Source of the DNA: an uncultured Candidatus Saccharibacteria bacterium
Lineage (GTDB): Bacteria; Patescibacteriota; Minisyncoccia; Phycocordibacterales; UBA12088
DNA length: 64,000 bases
Assembly (NCBI GenBank): GCA_964567265.1
Contig: CAZMLK010000002.1
Coordinates: 138,813 to 202,812, forward strand
Direction: 5' to 3'
The notes under the pieces were generated by a model that was not told where the DNA came from, ran no database searches, and saw only the letters and a program-made list of their open reading frames with translations. Positions 1,971-60,793 of the stretch are shown one piece after another. Position 1 is the stretch's first letter, and each line of letters begins with the position of its first letter. The translations under genes were made by a program, and so were the position numbers.

Positions 1971-1982
1971 CGATTCTCCTAT
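1971..1982 (+). repeat. Direct repeat of the tRNA-Gly T-arm 3' segment (possible att remnant)
   Basis: CGATTCTCCTAT identical to 1767-1778 inside the tRNA, 204 bp downstream. Confidence 0.6.
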
Positions 1983-2488: not shown

Positions 2489-3172
2489 ATGAGTACGGCC
2501 GAAAGACAGACCGCGTTGATTGTAGGAGGTACTTCCGGCATAGGTTTCGAGCTCGCCTTGAAGCTCGTCGGAACTCACGATGTCATCGTGACGGGACGTC
2601 ATAACCCAAACCGGCAGGATCTCGAATATCTCCCTCTGAATCTGGATGGACTGCAGGTGAATGCAGACATTGCAAAAGTCTGTGCCACTCTTCCGAAGAT
2701 AGACTGTTTCATATATGCCGCTGGGTATCAGCAACCTCAGACAATTGCCGGACTTACAGAGCGAGACATTGATTCGATGACGAGCGTCGGCTTCACCGCC
2801 TGCGCAAAAATTATTGCACGGATACTACGCGAGCAGGACCACTTGCCGGGGCTCATACTGATCAGTTCTTCTGCACAGTGGAAGCCGCTCGAGCGACATA
2901 TTCTGTATCGGGTCACGAAGCATGCGCTCGGGTATCTTGGTGAGTGCCTCTCACTCGATCCCGCTATCAGCAAGGTCCTGGTGTTCGGACCTGGTGGGGT
3001 GAACGGTACGGGATTCCGCAAAGACCACGTACCTGGATACATGGACGCGTCGGTAGTGGCAGATGCAATACTATATGCGTTCAATGAGGACATCCCCGGT
3101 GCTCCATTCAAGTACCGTGAAGTAGAGATGCCCCATGATACCGGCATTCCGCGCACACATCAGTGCCGTTAA
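2489..3172 (+). CDS. Short-chain dehydrogenase/reductase (SDR) family oxidoreductase
   Basis: 227 aa; Rossmann motif VGGTSGIGFELA, catalytic YRVTK (YxxxK); AGGAG Shine-Dalgarno 8 nt upstream. Confidence 0.85.
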   Translation: MSTAERQTALIVGGTSGIGFELALKLVGTHDVIVTGRHNPNRQDLEYLPLNLDGLQVNADIAKVCATLPKIDCFIYAAGYQQPQTIAGLTERDIDSMTSVGFTACAKIIARILREQDHLPGLILISSSAQWKPLERHILYRVTKHALGYLGECLSLDPAISKVLVFGPGGVNGTGFRKDHVPGYMDASVVADAILYAFNEDIPGAPFKYREVEMPHDTGIPRTHQCR

Positions 3173-3259: not shown

Positions 3260-4429
3260 ATGCAACCGCTCGCTGCAAAGATCAGGCCGGAATCACTCGA
3301 CGACTATGTAGGGCAGGATCATTTGGTCGGGGCAGGGAAGCCGCTCCGGATCGCGATCGAGAACCAGCACCGCTTCTCATTCATCCTGTGGGGCCCGCCC
3401 GGTTCCGGAAAGACGACGCTCGCGCGCATCTATGCACGTGCGCTTGATGCACACCTCCATGAGCTCTCTGCTGTCTCTGCCGGCAAGGAAGATATCCGTC
3501 AGCTCTTGAAAGAAGATACGGGCGGCAAGCCGCGCGTGCTTTTCCTCGATGAGATCCATCGGTTCAATAAAGCGCAGCAGGATTTTCTCTTGCCGTATGT
3601 CGAGTCGGGCGAGATCACCTTGATCGGCGCAACGACCGAGAATCCGAGTTTTGAAATCATCCCTGCGCTCCTTTCGCGGGCGCGCGTGTTCGTGCTCTAC
3701 GCGGTCTCGCCGGACGGCATGCGCCGCATACTGCATCGTGCCGGATACGACATCCCCGACGAAGCGCTCGACTGGCTCGTGGAGATGGCGAATGGTGATG
3801 CGCGCGCCGCGCTCTCCGTTCTTGGAAATGCGAAGGAGCTCTACGGCGACATCACGCTGTCGTCGCTGAAGGAATCGCTGCAGTCCACCTTCCTCCGGTA
3901 CGACAAGAAGGGTGAGGAACACTACGATACCGTGAGCGCGTTCATAAAAAGCATGCGCGCCTCGCAACCCGACGCCGCGCTCTACTATCTGTCGCGCATG
4001 CTCCAGGGCGGCGAGGACCCGAAGTTCATCGCGAGGCGCATGGTCATCTTCGCGTCCGAAGACATCGGGCTCGCCCAGCCGACCGCACTCGTCGTCGCAA
4101 ACGAAGTCTTCCGCGCGTGCGAGATCATCGGCCTTCCGGAATGTGCGATCAATCTCGCGCACGGCGTCGCGTATCTCGCGCTCGCCAAGAAGGACCGGTC
4201 GGCATACGATGCGCTCCGCGAAGCGGAAGCAGATGCGAAGAAGCACGGCAATCTCCCGATTCCGCTTCCGCTCAGGAATGCGCCGACCAAGCTCATGAAA
4301 GACCTCAAGTATGGAAAGGGGTACGAGATGTACAGTGCCGAATCATTCCTGCCTGAAAAATTAAAAGGAAAGAAATATCTGAAGGACGGCGTTCCGAAAT
4401 CAAAGAAGAAGCCGGATGCTGACATATGA
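3260..4429 (+). CDS. rarA: Replication-associated recombination protein A (AAA+ ATPase RarA/MgsA)
   Basis: 389 aa; Walker [10 protein letters not shown], Walker [12 protein letters not shown], MgsA C-terminal block [27 protein letters not shown]; TAGACT -10 ends 6 nt before ATG. Confidence 0.9.
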
Positions 4430-34399: not shown

Positions 34400-34951
34400 A
34401 ATATTCTCGGACTCTGTTCTGTAAGAAAGGGGAGAGGAGTGCGTCACCCCAAATAGGACCACTCTATAAATGGCTAAGTTGAGCCATAACTGGGAGCTAC
34501 ACAATGCTTGCCACCGTTCTTTCTCGAATCGTCGCCGTTACTGGTTTGACCACGAAAAGTCCCCCCACCACCACTGATTTCACTATGAGCATCAAATCTC
34601 ATGTGGGAGCGCCTTTCGACGCCAAACTCATTGAACGCCGCCGCAATCGCCGACCGCGCATAGGAAGCACTCGCCACCTCATCGCCGTCTGGTGTCATGA
34701 GACGAAGCAGCAGTACCGCATCATCGTCCGCCGTTCGTTGATCGAAAAATTGGCTCGCGGCAAGTCGGTCATCGCCAACGTCTATCATCCTGATCTTGGA
34801 CGTGCAGGCGCGCTTCCCGCCGAGCTTATACTCCGCTTCAACCACGCCGAGCCCGGTCTCGGCGCGACTACCGCGCAGCTCTTACATCTGCTTCACTAAC
34901 CTGAAGCATTCCCACATCCCGTGGCCGCATCCTGCGGCCACGGGATTCCTT

Positions 34952-35404: not shown

Positions 35405-35470
35405 GAAAGCAACGCAGGAATGCACACGCCGCCGGGCATACTTGCCCGGCGGCTTTGTATAATGATTCCC

Positions 35471-36925
35471 ATGTTTCTCTATCCACTCATCGGTGGATTC
35501 GCAACAGGCGTCCTCCTCCGGTCCTTCCTCGTGATCGGGCTTCCGGGAGTCGGTTTCGGTGCCGTGATCGCGGCTGCACTCCTCGCGCTCGGTTTCCGCC
35601 GGGGCGAGCGATCGCTCACCCTCGCGGCGATTGTCTGTTTCGGTATCGTGCTCGGCATCTGCCGCTACACGCTTGCAGAGGATGCGCTCCCGTACGCGCT
35701 CGTCGATTCTCTTGGCGAAGGGCGCATGGTCGGGGCGGGCGTCATTGTCGCCGACCCGGATCTCCGCGAAGGGAACACCAAGCTCACCATCGATCTCGAT
35801 ACCATGAACAGCGCGACGACGACGCTCCGCATCCTCGCAACCGTGGATCGTTTCCCTCGCTTTGCATACGGGGATCGTGTGCAGTTGAATGGCATCCTCA
35901 AAAAACCCACAGCATTTTCCGGCGACACGGAGCGCGTCTTCGATTATCCCGCATGGCTCAAGAAAGATGGCATTGTCGCCGTCATGTCATATCCGCGCAT
36001 CGAACGCATCGAGGACGGAGGAGGCAACATCATTTTTCGATACCTGTTCCGCATCAAGCACGCCTTCCTCTCGAATATCGAGGAGCGCATTCCGGAACCG
36101 GAATCGGGACTCCTCGCGGGGCTCTTGGTTGGCTCGAAGCAGTCCTTGGGGAAGGAGCTCCAGGATACGTTCCGCGTCGCGGGTGTCATCCATATCGTCG
36201 TCCTCTCAGGCTACAACGTGACCATTGTCGCGGAAGCCATCATGCGGGCGCTCGCATTCCTGCCGCGCATGCTCTCCTATGCCGCAGGAGGGGTAAGTAT
36301 CATCCTCTTCGCGATCATGGCGGGCGGCTCGGCGACGGTGGTCCGTGCGAGCATCATGGCGGTCCTTGTCCTCATCGCGCGTGCGACGGGACGCACCAAT
36401 GATCTCCTTCGCGCGCTCCTTGTGACCGGCTTCGTGATGCTGATCCACAACCCCTTCATCTTGGCGTTCGATCCCTCGTTCCAACTCTCGTTCCTCGCGA
36501 CCTTCGGCCTCATATTGATCGCCCCGAAGCTTGAGACGCGGGTCACGTGGATTCCGGCAAGATTCGGCATTCGCGAGATTGTCGTCGCGACGCTCTCGAC
36601 GCAGCTCATCGTCTTGCCGCTCCTCCTCTGGATGACCGGTATCTTCTCGGTCGTCGCGCTTCCGGCGAACCTCCTTATCCTCGGCGCGGTGCCGCCCGCG
36701 ATGCTGTTCGGCTTCCTCGCCGGAATGCTCGGGTTCGTGAGTACCTGGCTCGCGCTCCCGTTTGCGCTCATCGCGGATGCGATCCTCCGTTACCAGCTTT
36801 TCGTCGTCCACGTGCTTGCTGGGCTTCCGTTCGCGGCCTTCACGCTCCCTGCCTTTCCGTTCTCAGTATCGCTGGTTGCGTACGTGCTCTTGGCGCTCGT
36901 CTATGTGCGCGTGTCGAAAAAATAA
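35471..36925 (+). CDS. comEC: ComEC/Rec2 DNA internalisation channel protein (DUF4131 + competence domains, no MBL domain)
   Basis: Start at MFLYPLIGG (TATAAT ends 7 nt upstream); OB-like N-domain; competence-domain block GLLAGLLVGSKQSL...FRVAGVIHIVVLSGYNV; many TM helices. Confidence 0.8.
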   Translation: MFLYPLIGGFATGVLLRSFLVIGLPGVGFGAVIAAALLALGFRRGERSLTLAAIVCFGIVLGICRYTLAEDALPYALVDSLGEGRMVGAGVIVADPDLREGNTKLTIDLDTMNSATTTLRILATVDRFPRFAYGDRVQLNGILKKPTAFSGDTERVFDYPAWLKKDGIVAVMSYPRIERIEDGGGNIIFRYLFRIKHAFLSNIEERIPEPESGLLAGLLVGSKQSLGKELQDTFRVAGVIHIVVLSGYNVTIVAEAIMRALAFLPRMLSYAAGGVSIILFAIMAGGSATVVRASIMAVLVLIARATGRTNDLLRALLVTGFVMLIHNPFILAFDPSFQLSFLATFGLILIAPKLETRVTWIPARFGIREIVVATLSTQLIVLPLLLWMTGIFSVVALPANLLILGAVPPAMLFGFLAGMLGFVSTWLALPFALIADAILRYQLFVVHVLAGLPFAAFTLPAFPFSVSLVAYVLLALVYVRVSKK

Positions 36926-36963
36926 GAACGGCCGCGCGAAGCGCGGCCGTTCTTATTTTTTTT
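36917..36963. terminator. Bidirectional intrinsic terminator
   Basis: 21-bp arms AAAAAATAAGAACGGCCGCGC / GCGCGGCCGTTCTTATTTTTT between convergent comEC and sod. Confidence 0.75.
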
Positions 36964-36971
36964 AGAAAGTA

Positions 36972-37556
36972 TTACGCAATCTTCTCGAACCTTGCGGCGA
37001 TCGTCTCCATATTGAGCGCCGCGAGATACGCGTCGACATACTTCATCTTGTCGCCAGGAAGATAGTCGACCATATAGGCGTGCTCCCACACATCGAGGGC
37101 GACGACGACGGGAAGCGTGGCGAGCTGACCCTCGTCGTGATTGGTAACCCAGTTCATGTGGAGGCACTTCGCGATCGGATCGTAATTGAGGAGCGCCCAG
37201 CCGCTGCCGCGCGCGACGATCTTCTTGAATGACTCCTTCCAGGCATCCACCGATCCGTATTCGGCGATGAGGAGGTTCGAGAGCGGGCTTGCGGGTAGTA
37301 CTTTCGGGCCGCCTTCCAAATCCCCGAAATAGTATTCGTGGAGGCGCATGCCGTTGAACTCGAATCCGAGCCGGCGGCGGAGTTCCTGCATCAGGTGGCC
37401 GTTCTTCGCGGCATCCGCTCCGAGTTCCTTGAGTTCGTCATCGATCAGGTTCACGTGCTTCACGTAGCCCTGGTACAGCTTCACATGTTCCTCGATCTGC
37501 TTTGCGGAGACGCCGGGCACTTCGGGAAGTGTGAATATTTTGGCTTCGTATTTCAT
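36972..37556 (-). CDS. sod: Fe/Mn superoxide dismutase family protein (divergent N-terminus)
   Basis: 194 aa; C-terminal metal-ligand motif DVWEHAY, GWALL; N-terminal domain lacks the usual HHxKHH block. Confidence 0.8.
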   Translation of the reverse strand: MKYEAKIFTLPEVPGVSAKQIEEHVKLYQGYVKHVNLIDDELKELGADAAKNGHLMQELRRRLGFEFNGMRLHEYYFGDLEGGPKVLPASPLSNLLIAEYGSVDAWKESFKKIVARGSGWALLNYDPIAKCLHMNWVTNHDEGQLATLPVVVALDVWEHAYMVDYLPGDKMKYVDAYLAALNMETIAARFEKIA

Positions 37557-37596
37557 GGACGGGTTTGGTTAGCTGGTCTCGAAAAGTATACACCAA

Positions 37597-37628
37597 AGAA
37601 AAAAGCCAGGGTCCGGGTGGACCCTGGC
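37597..37628 (-). terminator. Intrinsic terminator (minus strand), copy 1
   Basis: GCCAGGGTCC-N4-GGACCCTGGC followed on the minus strand by TTTTTTCT; 41 nt upstream of the sod start codon. Confidence 0.75.
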
Positions 37629-37742
37629 AAGTAAGATCAGGGAGGCTAAACGTCTGGGAGGAGATAAGCACGCGGCAATGCGTGTGCCCCAAGTCATGTG
37701 AATGACCAGGTGGGCTTGAAGCCCAGGAACCGCAAGTCCACT
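37597..37742 (-). ncRNA. Candidate ~145-nt structured small RNA or sod leader/attenuator
   Basis: Minus-strand TTGACA (37772-37777), 17-nt spacer, TACAAA (37749-37754); several hairpins; ends at terminator copy 1; no ORF. Confidence 0.35.
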
Positions 37743-37808
37743 GACACCTTTGTACCAGTGTCTTGGAATGCTGTCAATGCCGCGTGAGTGAGGGGTGCGG
37801 GGGAAATG

Positions 37809-37837
37809 AAAAAGCCAGGGTCCGGAGGGACCCTGGC
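37809..37837 (-). terminator. Intrinsic terminator (minus strand), copy 2
   Basis: Same 10-bp stem GCCAGGGTCC/GGACCCTGGC, loop differs, TTTTT on minus strand. Confidence 0.7.
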
Positions 37838-37860
37838 AGTCAGTCGAGGAACTGGGAGGC
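37809..37860 (-). ncRNA. Candidate ~50-nt small RNA
   Basis: Minus-strand TTGACA (37891-37896), 18-nt spacer, TATGGT (37867-37872); transcript would run only about 50 nt into terminator copy 2; contains GCCUCCCAG. Confidence 0.3.
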
Positions 37861-37981
37861 ACGATTACCATAGCAGTCTTCATGATATTTTGTCAATTAA
37901 CCAGGCGTTTTTACAGGTAATCCACATGACAGGCCAAGCGATTCCTAGAGCGGAAACGGGGCCATGGTACCATTTCCAGAT

Positions 37982-38185
37982 ATGCGTACCGCCCTTTTCT
38001 TCATTACTATCCTTGCGGTCGTCGTCGGCGCCTTTCTCTATCTGAACCGGACGCCGTGCGAGGGGAAGTGCCCTGAATCAGCGGGCAAGGAATACTGCCG
38101 AAGCCTCGACAAACGCCGCAAGAATACAGAATTCAACCTCTCATATGGCGACCGTGTCCGCATGGTCATAAACGGCTGCTACTAG
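37982..38185 (+). CDS. Small membrane protein, Cys-rich tail
   Basis: Start at MRTALFFITILAVVVGAFLYL; 67 aa; CEGKCPESAGKEYC; directly upstream of MBL gene. Confidence 0.4.
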   Translation: MRTALFFITILAVVVGAFLYLNRTPCEGKCPESAGKEYCRSLDKRRKNTEFNLSYGDRVRMVINGCY

Positions 38186-38191
38186 GCTTTC

Positions 38192-39049
38192 ATGACATTC
38201 TCTCCGCTCCGGATTCGGATCGGCACACTCGCGCTCCTCGCCGGCGTGACCATTTTCATCTGGTACCTCGCGCTCCAGGCGACGTCCTCTCAGCTCACGG
38301 TCGCATTCCTCGATATCGGACAAGGAGATGCGATTTATATCGAGGGGCCGAACGGGAATCAGATTCTCATCGACGGCGGTGCGGACACCAAGGTGCTTGC
38401 CCGCCTCGGGGAGGTGATGCCGCTCGGCGACCGCTCGATCGATGTCGTCATCGGGACGCATCCAGACAAGGATCATATCGGCGGACTGCCTGACGTCTTG
38501 AAACGCTACGATGTTTCCTATGTATTCGAGCCCGGCATGGCGAATGATACGGCCGCATGGGACGCGTTCCTTCAGGCGATCGCGGACGAACACGCCGGGC
38601 ACATCATCGCGCGCCGGGGAATGGAGATCGATCTCGGACAGGGTGTCATGCTTTCGATATTGTTCCCGGACAAGCAGATCGCCGGCAAGGAGACGAACGC
38701 GGCTTCGATCGTCGCGAAGCTCTCGTATGGCGCCGTCGGCGTGATGCTGACTGGCGATGCGCCGCAGTCAGTCGAAGATCATCTTGTTACCTTGGATGGC
38801 GGGAATCTGAAAAGCGACATCCTCAAGGCAGGGCACCATGGATCGAAAACCTCAAGCGCTCCGCAGTTTCTCGATGCGGTCCGCCCGGCGTACGGGATCA
38901 TTTCCGCAGGGAAGGGAAATTCCTATGGCCATCCGCACAAGGAGGTCGTGAGCGCGCTCACGGAACGGAATGTGCGCACTCTGAGCACCATCGACAGGGG
39001 GACCATCATCTTTACTTCGGATGGGACGGCCGTCGCCTTACAGGAGTAG
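38192..39049 (+). CDS. Membrane-anchored MBL-fold hydrolase, ComEC C-terminal-domain-like
   Basis: 285 aa; N-terminal TM; FLDIGQGDAIYIE, GTHPDKDHIGG, GHHGS, typical of the ComEC beta-lactamase-like nuclease domain. Confidence 0.8.
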   Translation: MTFSPLRIRIGTLALLAGVTIFIWYLALQATSSQLTVAFLDIGQGDAIYIEGPNGNQILIDGGADTKVLARLGEVMPLGDRSIDVVIGTHPDKDHIGGLPDVLKRYDVSYVFEPGMANDTAAWDAFLQAIADEHAGHIIARRGMEIDLGQGVMLSILFPDKQIAGKETNAASIVAKLSYGAVGVMLTGDAPQSVEDHLVTLDGGNLKSDILKAGHHGSKTSSAPQFLDAVRPAYGIISAGKGNSYGHPHKEVVSALTERNVRTLSTIDRGTIIFTSDGTAVALQE

Positions 39050-60247: not shown

Positions 60248-60793
60248 ATGAGCCGCGTAGGAAAACAACACATCCAAATCCCAGCACAGACAACCGTGAC
60301 CCTCGCGGACGGCGTGCTTTCGGTGAAGGGTCCACTGGGCGCGCTCTCGAAGCCGGTCAAGGATACGATCGTCATCACCATTGCTGAGAAGGAAGTCACC
60401 TTCATGCCGAAGGGCGGAGAAGAAGCAAAGAAGGCAGACCGCTCCCTCTGGGGCACCTACGCCTCGCACCTCGACAACATGATCGAGGGTGTCACGAAGG
60501 GATTCTCGAAGAAGCTCATCCTCGAAGGCATCGGCTACCGCGCCGAAGTGCAGGGCAGCACCATGGTGTTCGCGCTCGGCCTCTCGCATCCGGTCCGCCT
60601 CCCGATCCCGGAAGGCATCAAGGTCCTCGTCGAGAAGACGGCGATCACGATCTCAGGAATCAACAAGGAGCAGGTCGGCCAGTTCGCCGCGACCGTCCGC
60701 GACCTGAAGCCGCCAGAGCCGTACAAGGGCAAGGGCATGCGCTATGACGGAGAAATCATCCGCCGCAAGCAGGGCAAGAAGTCCACCGCATAG
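60248..60793 (+). CDS. rplF: 50S ribosomal protein L6
   Basis: 181 aa; MSRVGKQHIQIP, PEPYKGKGMRY. Confidence 0.96.
   Translation: MSRVGKQHIQIPAQTTVTLADGVLSVKGPLGALSKPVKDTIVITIAEKEVTFMPKGGEEAKKADRSLWGTYASHLDNMIEGVTKGFSKKLILEGIGYRAEVQGSTMVFALGLSHPVRLPIPEGIKVLVEKTAITISGINKEQVGQFAATVRDLKPPEPYKGKGMRYDGEIIRRKQGKKSTA

Follow-up and report, generated by a model that had tools for sequence, protein, structure and literature searches.

What does the gap upstream of a bacterial superoxide dismutase (SOD) gene hold, if not another gene for a protein? The question is raised by a stretch of 64,000 nucleotides from an uncultured Candidatus Saccharibacteria bacterium (contig CAZMLK010000002.1; the whole stretch is called the window here), in which the minus-strand sod gene is preceded by two tandem promoter-to-terminator units, A and B, with near-identical hairpins. 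An initial annotation of this DNA described the units as either candidate small RNAs (sRNAs) or an attenuator of sod. A comparison with related loci favors, with a probability of about 0.6, the view that the minus strand has two small RNA genes here that function independently, one for RNA A (~37860-37809) and one for RNA B (~37742-37599). The gap that holds them is shorter than was first thought. Because the divergent 73-aa open reading frame (ORF) at its far end is under selection and is a real gene, as its codon-position conservation indicates, the non-coding gap between sod and this ORF measures 407 nt (37557-37963) rather than 635 nt.

The two units share one design. Two hairpins of GCCAGGGTCC/GGACCCTGGC, at 37605-37628 and 37814-37837, stand 209 bp apart. 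Both have a stem of 10 perfect pairs, eight of them G-C, closed by a 4-nt loop, and on the minus strand a T-run (TTTTTT or TTTTT) comes next. A terminator scan recognizes both as intrinsic terminators, bearing out the pair of same-stem terminators in the initial annotation at both positions, and detects equivalent terminators in the related loci L001, L003, and L171 (the window serves as reference; relatives' loci are numbered L001, L002, and so on, and are named with the identity of their SOD to that of the window). As RNA, terminator A reads GCCAGGGUCC-CUCC-GGACCCUGGC, a perfect 10-bp stem followed by UUUUU. Exact copies of the stem 10-mer occur in the window only at these four arms. The likeness between units A and B reaches past the stems, over 35 nt at 89% identity, plus GATCAGGGAGGC/GAACTGGGAGGC, and C-rich octamers recur in both: CCTCCCAG at 37852-37859 and 37654-37661, and CCTCCCTG at 37638-37645. 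Three of the five CCTCC(C)WG octamers of the window lie here, within ~220 nt. This count agrees with the earlier observation of a motif common to both predicted RNAs, found in RNA A and, as a type, twice in the RNA B linker. RNA A resembles the 3' part of RNA B, copied with its 5' end cut short.

The promoters fit the same design. Combinations of the form TTGACA-N16-18-TA are enriched about five-fold in the window (9 found versus 1.67 expected), and two of the nine lie in this gap. A sigma-70-type promoter is defined by a −35 box of TTGACA, a spacer of 16-18 nt, and a TATAAT-like −10 hexamer whose second base is A and whose sixth is T. The sequences of both TTGACA promoters proposed at first are present, promoter A as a scan hit with 10 of 12 consensus matches plus a TG extension and promoter B as a candidate unlisted by the scan; the promoter A counterpart in L001 is detected as well. 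The two terminators do not appear to serve another transcript. Between the units and L28, the nearest minus-strand gene upstream of them, lie two plus-strand genes (37964-39049), so that no minus-strand gene stands directly upstream for which terminators A and B could be the stops.

Selection against neutral divergence carries the argument for two genes. Orthologous gaps were taken from six contigs, and 4-fold sites served as the neutral yardstick between the window and L001, with 60% identity in sod and 54% in the lactamase gene (pooled, 0.56). Promoter A is identical to L001 at 30 of 30 positions and RNA A at 52 of 56; together they reach 82 of 86 (P = 2e-16). Promoter B retains 27 of 29 positions and the RNA B 5' domain 62 of 73, and the segment from promoter B through the terminator B stem is identical at ~148 of 169 (P = 7e-19). 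The spacer between terminator A and promoter B, identical at 19 of 30 positions (P = 0.27), is indistinguishable from neutral. Two conserved blocks with a neutral spacer between them form the pattern expected of two separate genes and not of a single leader, and the comparison shows that both units are under purifying selection as two such blocks. The terminator A stem is invariant in L001 and its loop differs (CTCC in the window, CCTCA in L001); the linker word CTCCCAGACGTTTAGCCTCCCTGATCT of RNA B is also invariant there. L172 (SOD 98%) has the same gap as the window except for one substitution, which lengthens a hairpin of RNA B, and both units are present in L001 and L002 (SOD 93%). The sRNA half of the initial annotation thus holds up, with both units conserved far above neutral, the spacer neutral, no conserved ORF, and the layout recurring in relatives. 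The conservation that had been called for is found as both units in L172, L001, and L002 and, at the level of layout, as one unit in L003 and L171.

The same comparison bears on the possibility that the gap encodes one or two small proteins. Two ORFs do exist in the window, one of 104 aa (37569-37883, minus strand) that starts in the promoter A spacer and one of 17 aa inside RNA B. In L001, frameshifting indels cut the former to 36 aa and the ATG of the latter is ACG; L003 has no matching ORF, and no Shine-Dalgarno sequence accompanies them. A coding function is very improbable on these grounds, and the original statement that this gap has no convincing ORF is sustained, as no ORF in it is conserved in L001 and L003.

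More diverged relatives carry a single unit in the same gap between sod and the small ORF and in the same orientation. The L003 unit (SOD 72%) begins with TTGACA-17-TACAAG, and its predicted RNA of ~116 nt has two 5' hairpins, an unpaired UGAUGCCUCCCUCGAUU, and the terminator UUGCCGGGUC-UUCG-GACCCGGCAG, whose stem GCCGGGTC/GACCCGGC is the window stem less one base pair per side. The L171 unit (SOD 67%) begins with TTGACA-17-TATTAT, matching the consensus at 11 of 12 positions, and its predicted RNA of ~115 nt has a 5' hairpin, then CCUCGUCCUCCCCAGGAC, then a terminator stem unrelated to that of the window (GGCCTCGC/GCGAGGCC, as RNA GGCCUCGC/GCGAGGCC). In L085 (SOD 74%) the contig starts inside the unit, which retains ATCTTACTT, equal to the window linker, ahead of a different stem, GGCCGGTCGCAC/GTGCGTCCGGCC. 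Terminator stems are therefore wholly replaced across lineages and the CCUCCC tract and layout are kept. This tract, a few to ~25 nt 5' of the terminator and in RNA A at the predicted 5' end, is all that is common to every unit-bearing lineage. In a regex-plus-hairpin scan of 817 kb (the window plus the related loci), CCTCCC with a terminator within 40 nt occurs essentially only at these sites; a MAFFT alignment of all units misaligned the seeds and the stems of unequal length. We infer the orthology of the L003 and L171 units from synteny, architecture, and the short shared words GCCTCCCT, TTGCC..GGGTC, and CCTCGACTGA.

A few further likenesses link the window to these loci. The 10-mer CCTCGACTGA is exact in RNA A (37840-37849, minus strand) and in the L003 small RNA (2851-2860, plus strand); CUCGA-like words recur in the L171 RNA, and the CCTCGACTGA region may be a second conserved motif besides CCUCCC. 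The odd −10 box of promoter B, TACAAA, resembles the TACAAG of L003 (2802-2807), and the promoter A spacer at 37873-37890 (AAATATCATGAAGAC) resembles that of the single L171 promoter at 1776-1792 (AAAATTCATGTTGGAC). These promoter likenesses could reflect operator or alternative-sigma features and hint that both promoter types are old.

Could the units be without any RNA function, as a duplicated promoter/terminator module (an insulator between divergent genes, for example), a decaying remnant, or a repeat of the repetitive extragenic palindrome (REP) or miniature inverted-repeat transposable element (MITE) kind? The units are a local duplication, and the absence of the element from several related lineages marks it as dispensable, as such a module would be. 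Selection speaks otherwise: the promoters and RNA bodies are conserved far above neutral and the spacer is not, and the CCUCCC tract and architecture persist where the stems have been fully replaced. Nor does the element behave as a repeat: the 64-kb window and the 750 kb from related loci contain no further copies, and there are neither terminal inverted repeats nor target-site duplications. The concern that the hairpins might be a dispersed repeat unrelated to sod finds no support in the sequence covered by these scans, in which the exact stems occur at only two sites in 64 kb and, over 817 kb, the module is essentially confined to the sod locus. A locus without RNA function is improbable in light of these data.

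The predicted RNAs fold significantly better than shuffled sequences, with z-scores from −3.4 to −5.1, and share a layout of one or more 5' hairpins, a C-rich tract, and a terminator. RNA A carries GCCUCCCAG at its 5' terminus, ~7 nt past the −10 box, followed by a CAGUU/GACUG hairpin and the terminator; its predicted fold has an energy of −25.8 kcal/mol (z = −5.1) and leaves the 5' CCUCC unpaired. RNA B has a 5' hairpin-rich domain of ~70 nt, then the linker CUCCUCCCAGACGUUUAGCCUCCCUGAUCUUACUU, then terminator B, with a predicted fold of −53.8 kcal/mol (z = −3.4); its two C-rich motifs, B1 and B2, are unpaired in the minimum free energy (MFE) and centroid folds of the window sequence. When the window is aligned with L172 and L001, pairing is kept at 99% in six local hairpins, with one compensatory change from A-U to G-C and two wobble changes.

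These folds also bear on the idea that the units form a cis-acting leader of sod, in which transcription would start at promoter A or B, the terminators would be conditional (through a riboswitch, a protein, or a metal), and read-through would set sod expression. The geometry invites it: the units have the orientation of sod and lie directly upstream, the T-run of terminator B ends 8 nt before the sod −10 box, and the C-rich motifs are predicted to pair alternatively with G-rich segments. The initial annotation had also pointed to a long-range pairing that would exclude a local hairpin. Its complementarity exists (12 nt, 11 of 12 pairs in the window, 37669-37680 as the downstream arm), and its upstream arm lies at 37775-37786, one base away from where it had been placed. 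Its status as one of two mutually exclusive structures is not sustained. Seven of the 12 pairs are broken in L001 without compensation, the upstream arm overlaps the −35 box of promoter B as well as the neutrally evolving spacer, and the helix is impossible in single-unit relatives.

Other expectations of a leader likewise fail. No antiterminator rivals the 10-bp terminators, which are fully formed in the MFE and centroid folds, and nhmmer and blastn found no aptamer-like core and no conserved 5'-domain sequence among the window, L003, and L171. A scan of the whole window with Rfam 15 at gathering thresholds passes only a tRNA-Gly, and a scan of the region and four related loci at E ≤ 10 yields only sub-threshold, terminator-driven matches (mmgR, SorX, and amino-acid leaders at the sod/comEC terminator); the family match that had been sought, cis-regulatory or other, is thus lacking at gathering score in the region and its relatives. 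Finally, sod has a −10 box of its own. At a distance of ~6-35 nt from the start codon of sod, TGnTATA(C/A)T or TATACT precedes the gene in 12 of 12 loci, including five lineages without a unit, which shows, at the level of sequence, that the units are independent of the promoter of sod itself. With no conserved competing helix, formed terminators, a separate sod −10 box, and no Rfam match, the attenuator or riboswitch half of the initial annotation is unlikely, and some read-through into sod may occur all the same.

Two separate small RNA genes remain the favored reading, and a mechanism can be proposed for them. Each RNA would be transcribed from a separate sigma-70-type promoter whose −35 box is a perfect TTGACA and would end at a strong intrinsic terminator. 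As trans-acting antisense regulators, the RNAs would use their C-rich motifs (GCCUCCCAG, CUCCCAG, and GCCUCCCUG) to pair with GGGAGG-like Shine-Dalgarno regions of a small set of mRNAs, and this pairing would block translation initiation or alter mRNA stability. Base-pairing sRNAs classically carry their seed as a C-rich tract shortly ahead of the terminator, and in AbcR1/2, mmgR, RsaE/RoxS, and the cuckoo/CcsR family (PMC4615179) tracts of this kind serve as anti-Shine-Dalgarno seeds. The mechanism is proposed because the CCUCCC tract is common to all lineages and resembles the seeds of known sRNAs; by that analogy anti-Shine-Dalgarno pairing is a tentative proposal, held at somewhat less than even odds. 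Such a seed could be selective. Many genes of the window have a TATACT or TATAAT box, often TGn-extended, that ends 6-8 nt ahead of the ATG. Such spacing suggests that the genome makes many leaderless mRNAs, with Shine-Dalgarno-led genes in the minority. With so many leaderless-looking mRNAs, the C-rich seeds would find an accessible site only in the minority whose Shine-Dalgarno sequence is strong. A stress-linked, possibly oxidative role drawn from the position beside sod is speculation.

Several observations weigh against this picture. Both transcripts and both of their start sites are deduced from the DNA sequence. The −10 box of promoter B lacks the highly conserved last T, and its omission from the consensus scan is consistent with the missing position-6 T that the scan demands. 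Covariation is thin, with one compensatory pair in one informative relative. In the three-sequence consensus fold, CUGGG of the RNA B 5' domain pairs with CCCAG of B1 and GUGGA with UCCCU of B2, and the RNA B seeds may be partly masked by these 5' G-rich segments. Searches of the window gap against all loci with nhmmer and blastn gave no significant similarity to L003 or L171, and synteny and architecture are the only ties of the L171 unit to the others. The element is spread patchily over a narrow range: it is missing from five related lineages (SOD 65-71%), in which the gap is short or the gene order changed, and SOD-anchored scans of genome and metagenome contigs found it in 0 of 160 loci among the matches listed, where the best SOD identities were 66% for genome contigs and 51% for metagenome contigs. 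Targets are equally elusive. A window-wide duplex scan (duplexfold) gave no hit at a translation start, seed matches at start regions, scored by the longest complementary word, showed no excess over shuffled seeds, and GGGAGGC is not enriched in the window. One GGGAGGC, at 60597, was rejected as a site; it precedes a spurious antisense ORF without a Pfam match.

The failure of the target scans and the possible internal pairing of the RNA B seeds would suit real sRNAs with another mode of action, either as protein-binding or sponge RNAs or in cis on the divergent operon of the 73-aa ORF and the comEC-type lactamase gene (by competing for its promoter or by overlapping its 5' untranslated region (UTR) in antisense). 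Promoter A does abut the somewhat conserved region upstream of the 73-aa gene, identical to L001 at 48 of 67 positions (P = 0.006). The promoter scan found no plus-strand promoter that would give an antisense overlap, and the sole element common to all lineages, the C-rich CCUCCC just before the terminator, is what base pairing would predict. An alternative mode of this kind is unlikely, a little less so than a leader.

Two candidate targets were considered under the favored reading of trans-acting antisense RNAs. The first, the adjacent sod mRNA, was rejected. Duplex energies of each lineage's RNAs with its own sod mRNA were compared with those of shuffled seeds (60 for L001 RNA B), and the pairing was inconsistent across lineages. 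L001 RNA B reached −43.4 kcal/mol, pairing at the DVWEH codons, and 0 of 60 shuffles did as well; shuffles equaled or beat the real pairing at a fraction of 0.05 for L171, which is marginal, and of 0.10-0.32 for the remaining four tests, with 0.32 for both window RNAs. RNA A is also complementary to sod codons 42-46 over 15 nt, a site that is likewise unsupported as a target. In L001, the RNA B motif CUCCCAGACGUU pairs without a mismatch over 12 nt (one G-U) with GACGUCUGGGAG in its own sod (~3485-3515), and the window site is mismatched; as L001 alone shows this complement, the W-E codons probably produce it by coincidence.

The second candidate is a 131-aa ORF 3 kb away. Its ribosome binding site, AACUGGGAG, stands 8 nt before the ATG, is complementary to RNA A over 9 nt, and is unchanged in L001. 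It encodes a conserved protein of 129-131 aa without a Pfam match (window 34504-34899, plus strand; L001 5660-6052, minus strand; L003 5615-6004, minus strand) and is one of the few nearby genes with a Shine-Dalgarno-type leader. The L003 orthologue has the ribosome binding site GGAGGC, which complements L003's own GCCUCC. A match as long as that of AACUGGGAG with RNA A is expected by chance in most shuffled-seed trials, and the 131-aa ORF is a possible target that falls within what chance would give.

How do these units compare with known systems? By analogy, the closest in layout and proposed function would be tandem sibling anti-Shine-Dalgarno sRNAs such as AbcR1/2 and CcsR1-4. AbcR1 and AbcR2 of the Rhizobiales are tandem siblings with their own promoters and Rho-independent terminators, whose single-stranded CUCCCA-type motifs block ribosome binding on several mRNAs; their action is Hfq-dependent and their targets are ABC-transporter mRNAs. 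As in AbcR, two homologous units with C-rich motifs stand in tandem in one intergenic region. Unlike AbcR, they have no sequence or Rfam match to that family, belong to another phylum, and are very unequal siblings (~55 versus ~144 nt). CcsR RNAs are induced by oxidative stress. The cuckoo/CcsR1-4 (RSs0680) family consists of 2-4 adjacent hairpins, each with CCUCCUCCC in its loop (PMC4615179), and in this family, found in Alphaproteobacteria, the stems are highly variable and the motif alone is conserved (PMC4615179, PMC8034643). The units share with it repeated homologous C-rich, anti-Shine-Dalgarno-like modules, and RNA B of the window contains CUCCUCCC. They differ in that their motifs lie, in the predicted folds, in linear 5' or linker segments and not in hairpin loops, and in that the host is a Patescibacterium. 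The units lack the full cuckoo motif; CUCCUCCC itself is confined to the window RNA B and is shortened to CUCCC in L001.

Other families are more remote. The best sub-threshold Rfam alignment is to mmgR/suhB (RF00519, alpha-r8), which shares a single-stranded CUCCCU, a terminator hairpin, and a U-run. It scores 28.2 bits against a gathering score of 41 and does not form the first (5') hairpin of the model, where the alignment marks non-canonical pairs; RF00519 gave no match in the L001, L003, and L171 units, and the resemblance is, by sequence, a generic one of motif plus terminator. RsaE/RoxS and other UCCC-motif sRNAs of the Firmicutes pair several C-rich regions with Shine-Dalgarno sequences, are Hfq-independent, and are redox-linked. 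The units have C-rich regions in common with RsaE/RoxS and differ in architecture and phylogeny, with no Rfam match at E ≤ 10. PrrF1 and PrrF2 of Pseudomonas are tandem sRNAs with a functional link to an Fe-SOD, since they repress sodB; the units, too, are tandem siblings, and their link to sod is one of adjacency, with no Fur-box identified. As far as sequence can tell, the units probably constitute a narrowly distributed new sRNA family of a well-known kind, outside the described RNA families.

The features of the locus are collected in Table 1.

Table 1. Coordinates of the predicted units, their parts, the neighboring genes, and examples of leaderless-type starts in the window.
Feature	Positions	Strand	Description
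Promoter A	37867..37896	-	TTGACA (37891-37896), 18-nt spacer, TG-extended TATGGT (37867-37872)
RNA A (predicted, ~52-55 nt)	37809..37862	-	5' end placed at G37860-G37862 from the −10 position
C-rich motif A1 (GCCTCCCAG)	37852..37860	-	predicted RNA A 5' end; invariant in L172 and L001
Terminator A	37809..37837	-	10-bp stem 37814-37837, CTCC loop, T-run 37809-37813
Inter-unit spacer	37778..37808	-	evolves at about the neutral rate
Promoter B	37749..37777	-	TTGACA (37772-37777), 17-nt spacer, TACAAA (37749-37754)
RNA B (predicted, ~144 nt)	37599..37742	-	5' end placed at A37742; 5' hairpin domain, two C-rich motifs, terminator
Hairpin GGGCU-UCA-AGCCC	37712..37724	-	RNA B 5' domain; retained in L001 with U-A to U-G
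Hairpin GGUCAU-UCAC-AUGACU	37692..37707	-	RNA B 5' domain; compensatory A-U to G-C in L001; U to A in L172 lengthens the stem
Local hairpin CACGC-AUUGCC-GCGUG	37669..37684	-	4 of 5 pairs retained in L001
C-rich motifs B1 (CCTCCCAG, 37654-37661) and B2 (GCCTCCCTG, 37638-37646)	37638..37661	-	linker before terminator B
Terminator B	37599..37628	-	10-bp stem 37605-37628, ACCC loop, T-run 37599-37604
sod −10 box TATACT	37585..37590	-	downstream of terminator B
sod (Fe/Mn superoxide dismutase)	36972..37556	-	Pfam Sod_Fe_C, E = 7e-19; adjoins the small-RNA units downstream
comEC part with DUF4131 and Competence domains	35420..36925	+	
73-aa ORF	37964..38185	+	divergent from sod; codon positions 1, 2, and 3 are 99%, 100%, and 70% identical to L001
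ComEC-type metallo-beta-lactamase gene	38192..39049	+	
L28	39109..39429	-	nearest minus-strand gene upstream of the units
Example leaderless-type starts	1328(-), 10774(-), 16746(-), 31343(+), 32271(-), 34970(+), 35471(+)		−10 box near ATG

The neighborhood of the units is itself conserved. Relatives keep the gene order RecJ, 130-aa ORF, RNase H, ComEC, sod, small Cys-rich ORF, metallo-beta-lactamase gene, L28, and M50 peptidase. The SOD homologues come from Patescibacteria/Parcubacteria, the best match among species-representative genomes being a metagenome-assembled genome (MAG) of Candidatus Kaiserbacteria, at 66%. The comEC gene is apparently split into two genes, with sod, the small-RNA units, and the 73-aa ORF in between, a layout also seen in L001, L003, L171, and L174. 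The 73-aa ORF is one of a conserved group of 65-73 aa with an N-terminal hydrophobic segment, a Cys-rich tail, and no Pfam match, which always stands directly upstream of the lactamase-domain gene and is under strong purifying selection. Between the convergent comEC and sod genes lies a bidirectional terminator at 36924-36955, GAACGGCCGCGCGAAGCGCGGCCGTTC with flanking A- and T-runs, which accounts for several of the sub-threshold "leader" and sRNA matches to Rfam. The sod 5' UTRs of the window (37563-37572, minus strand) and L171 (~1971-1980, plus strand) have ACCAGCTAAC/ACCAGCTGAC in common, and these leaders have otherwise diverged.

A literature search found no described sRNA from Patescibacteria, and a 2024 perspective on the biology of the phylum leaves small RNAs unmentioned (PMC11665869). 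The finding would extend known biology, that of C-rich anti-Shine-Dalgarno siblings, to a new phylum; it introduces no new principle, and the clade that carries the units is narrow. To our knowledge, regulation in Patescibacteria, the Candidate Phyla Radiation (CPR), is almost unexplored. It is possible, at odds well short of even, that these sod-linked siblings are the first riboregulators recognized in the group, with CCUCCC seeds that silence a few Shine-Dalgarno-led mRNAs, the 131-aa ORF being the candidate among them. The units also supply clean natural promoter and terminator parts, and the conserved pair would be a concrete object for testing riboregulation in reduced genomes. If the proposal is true, it would describe a post-transcriptional stress circuit in an ultrasmall episymbiont.

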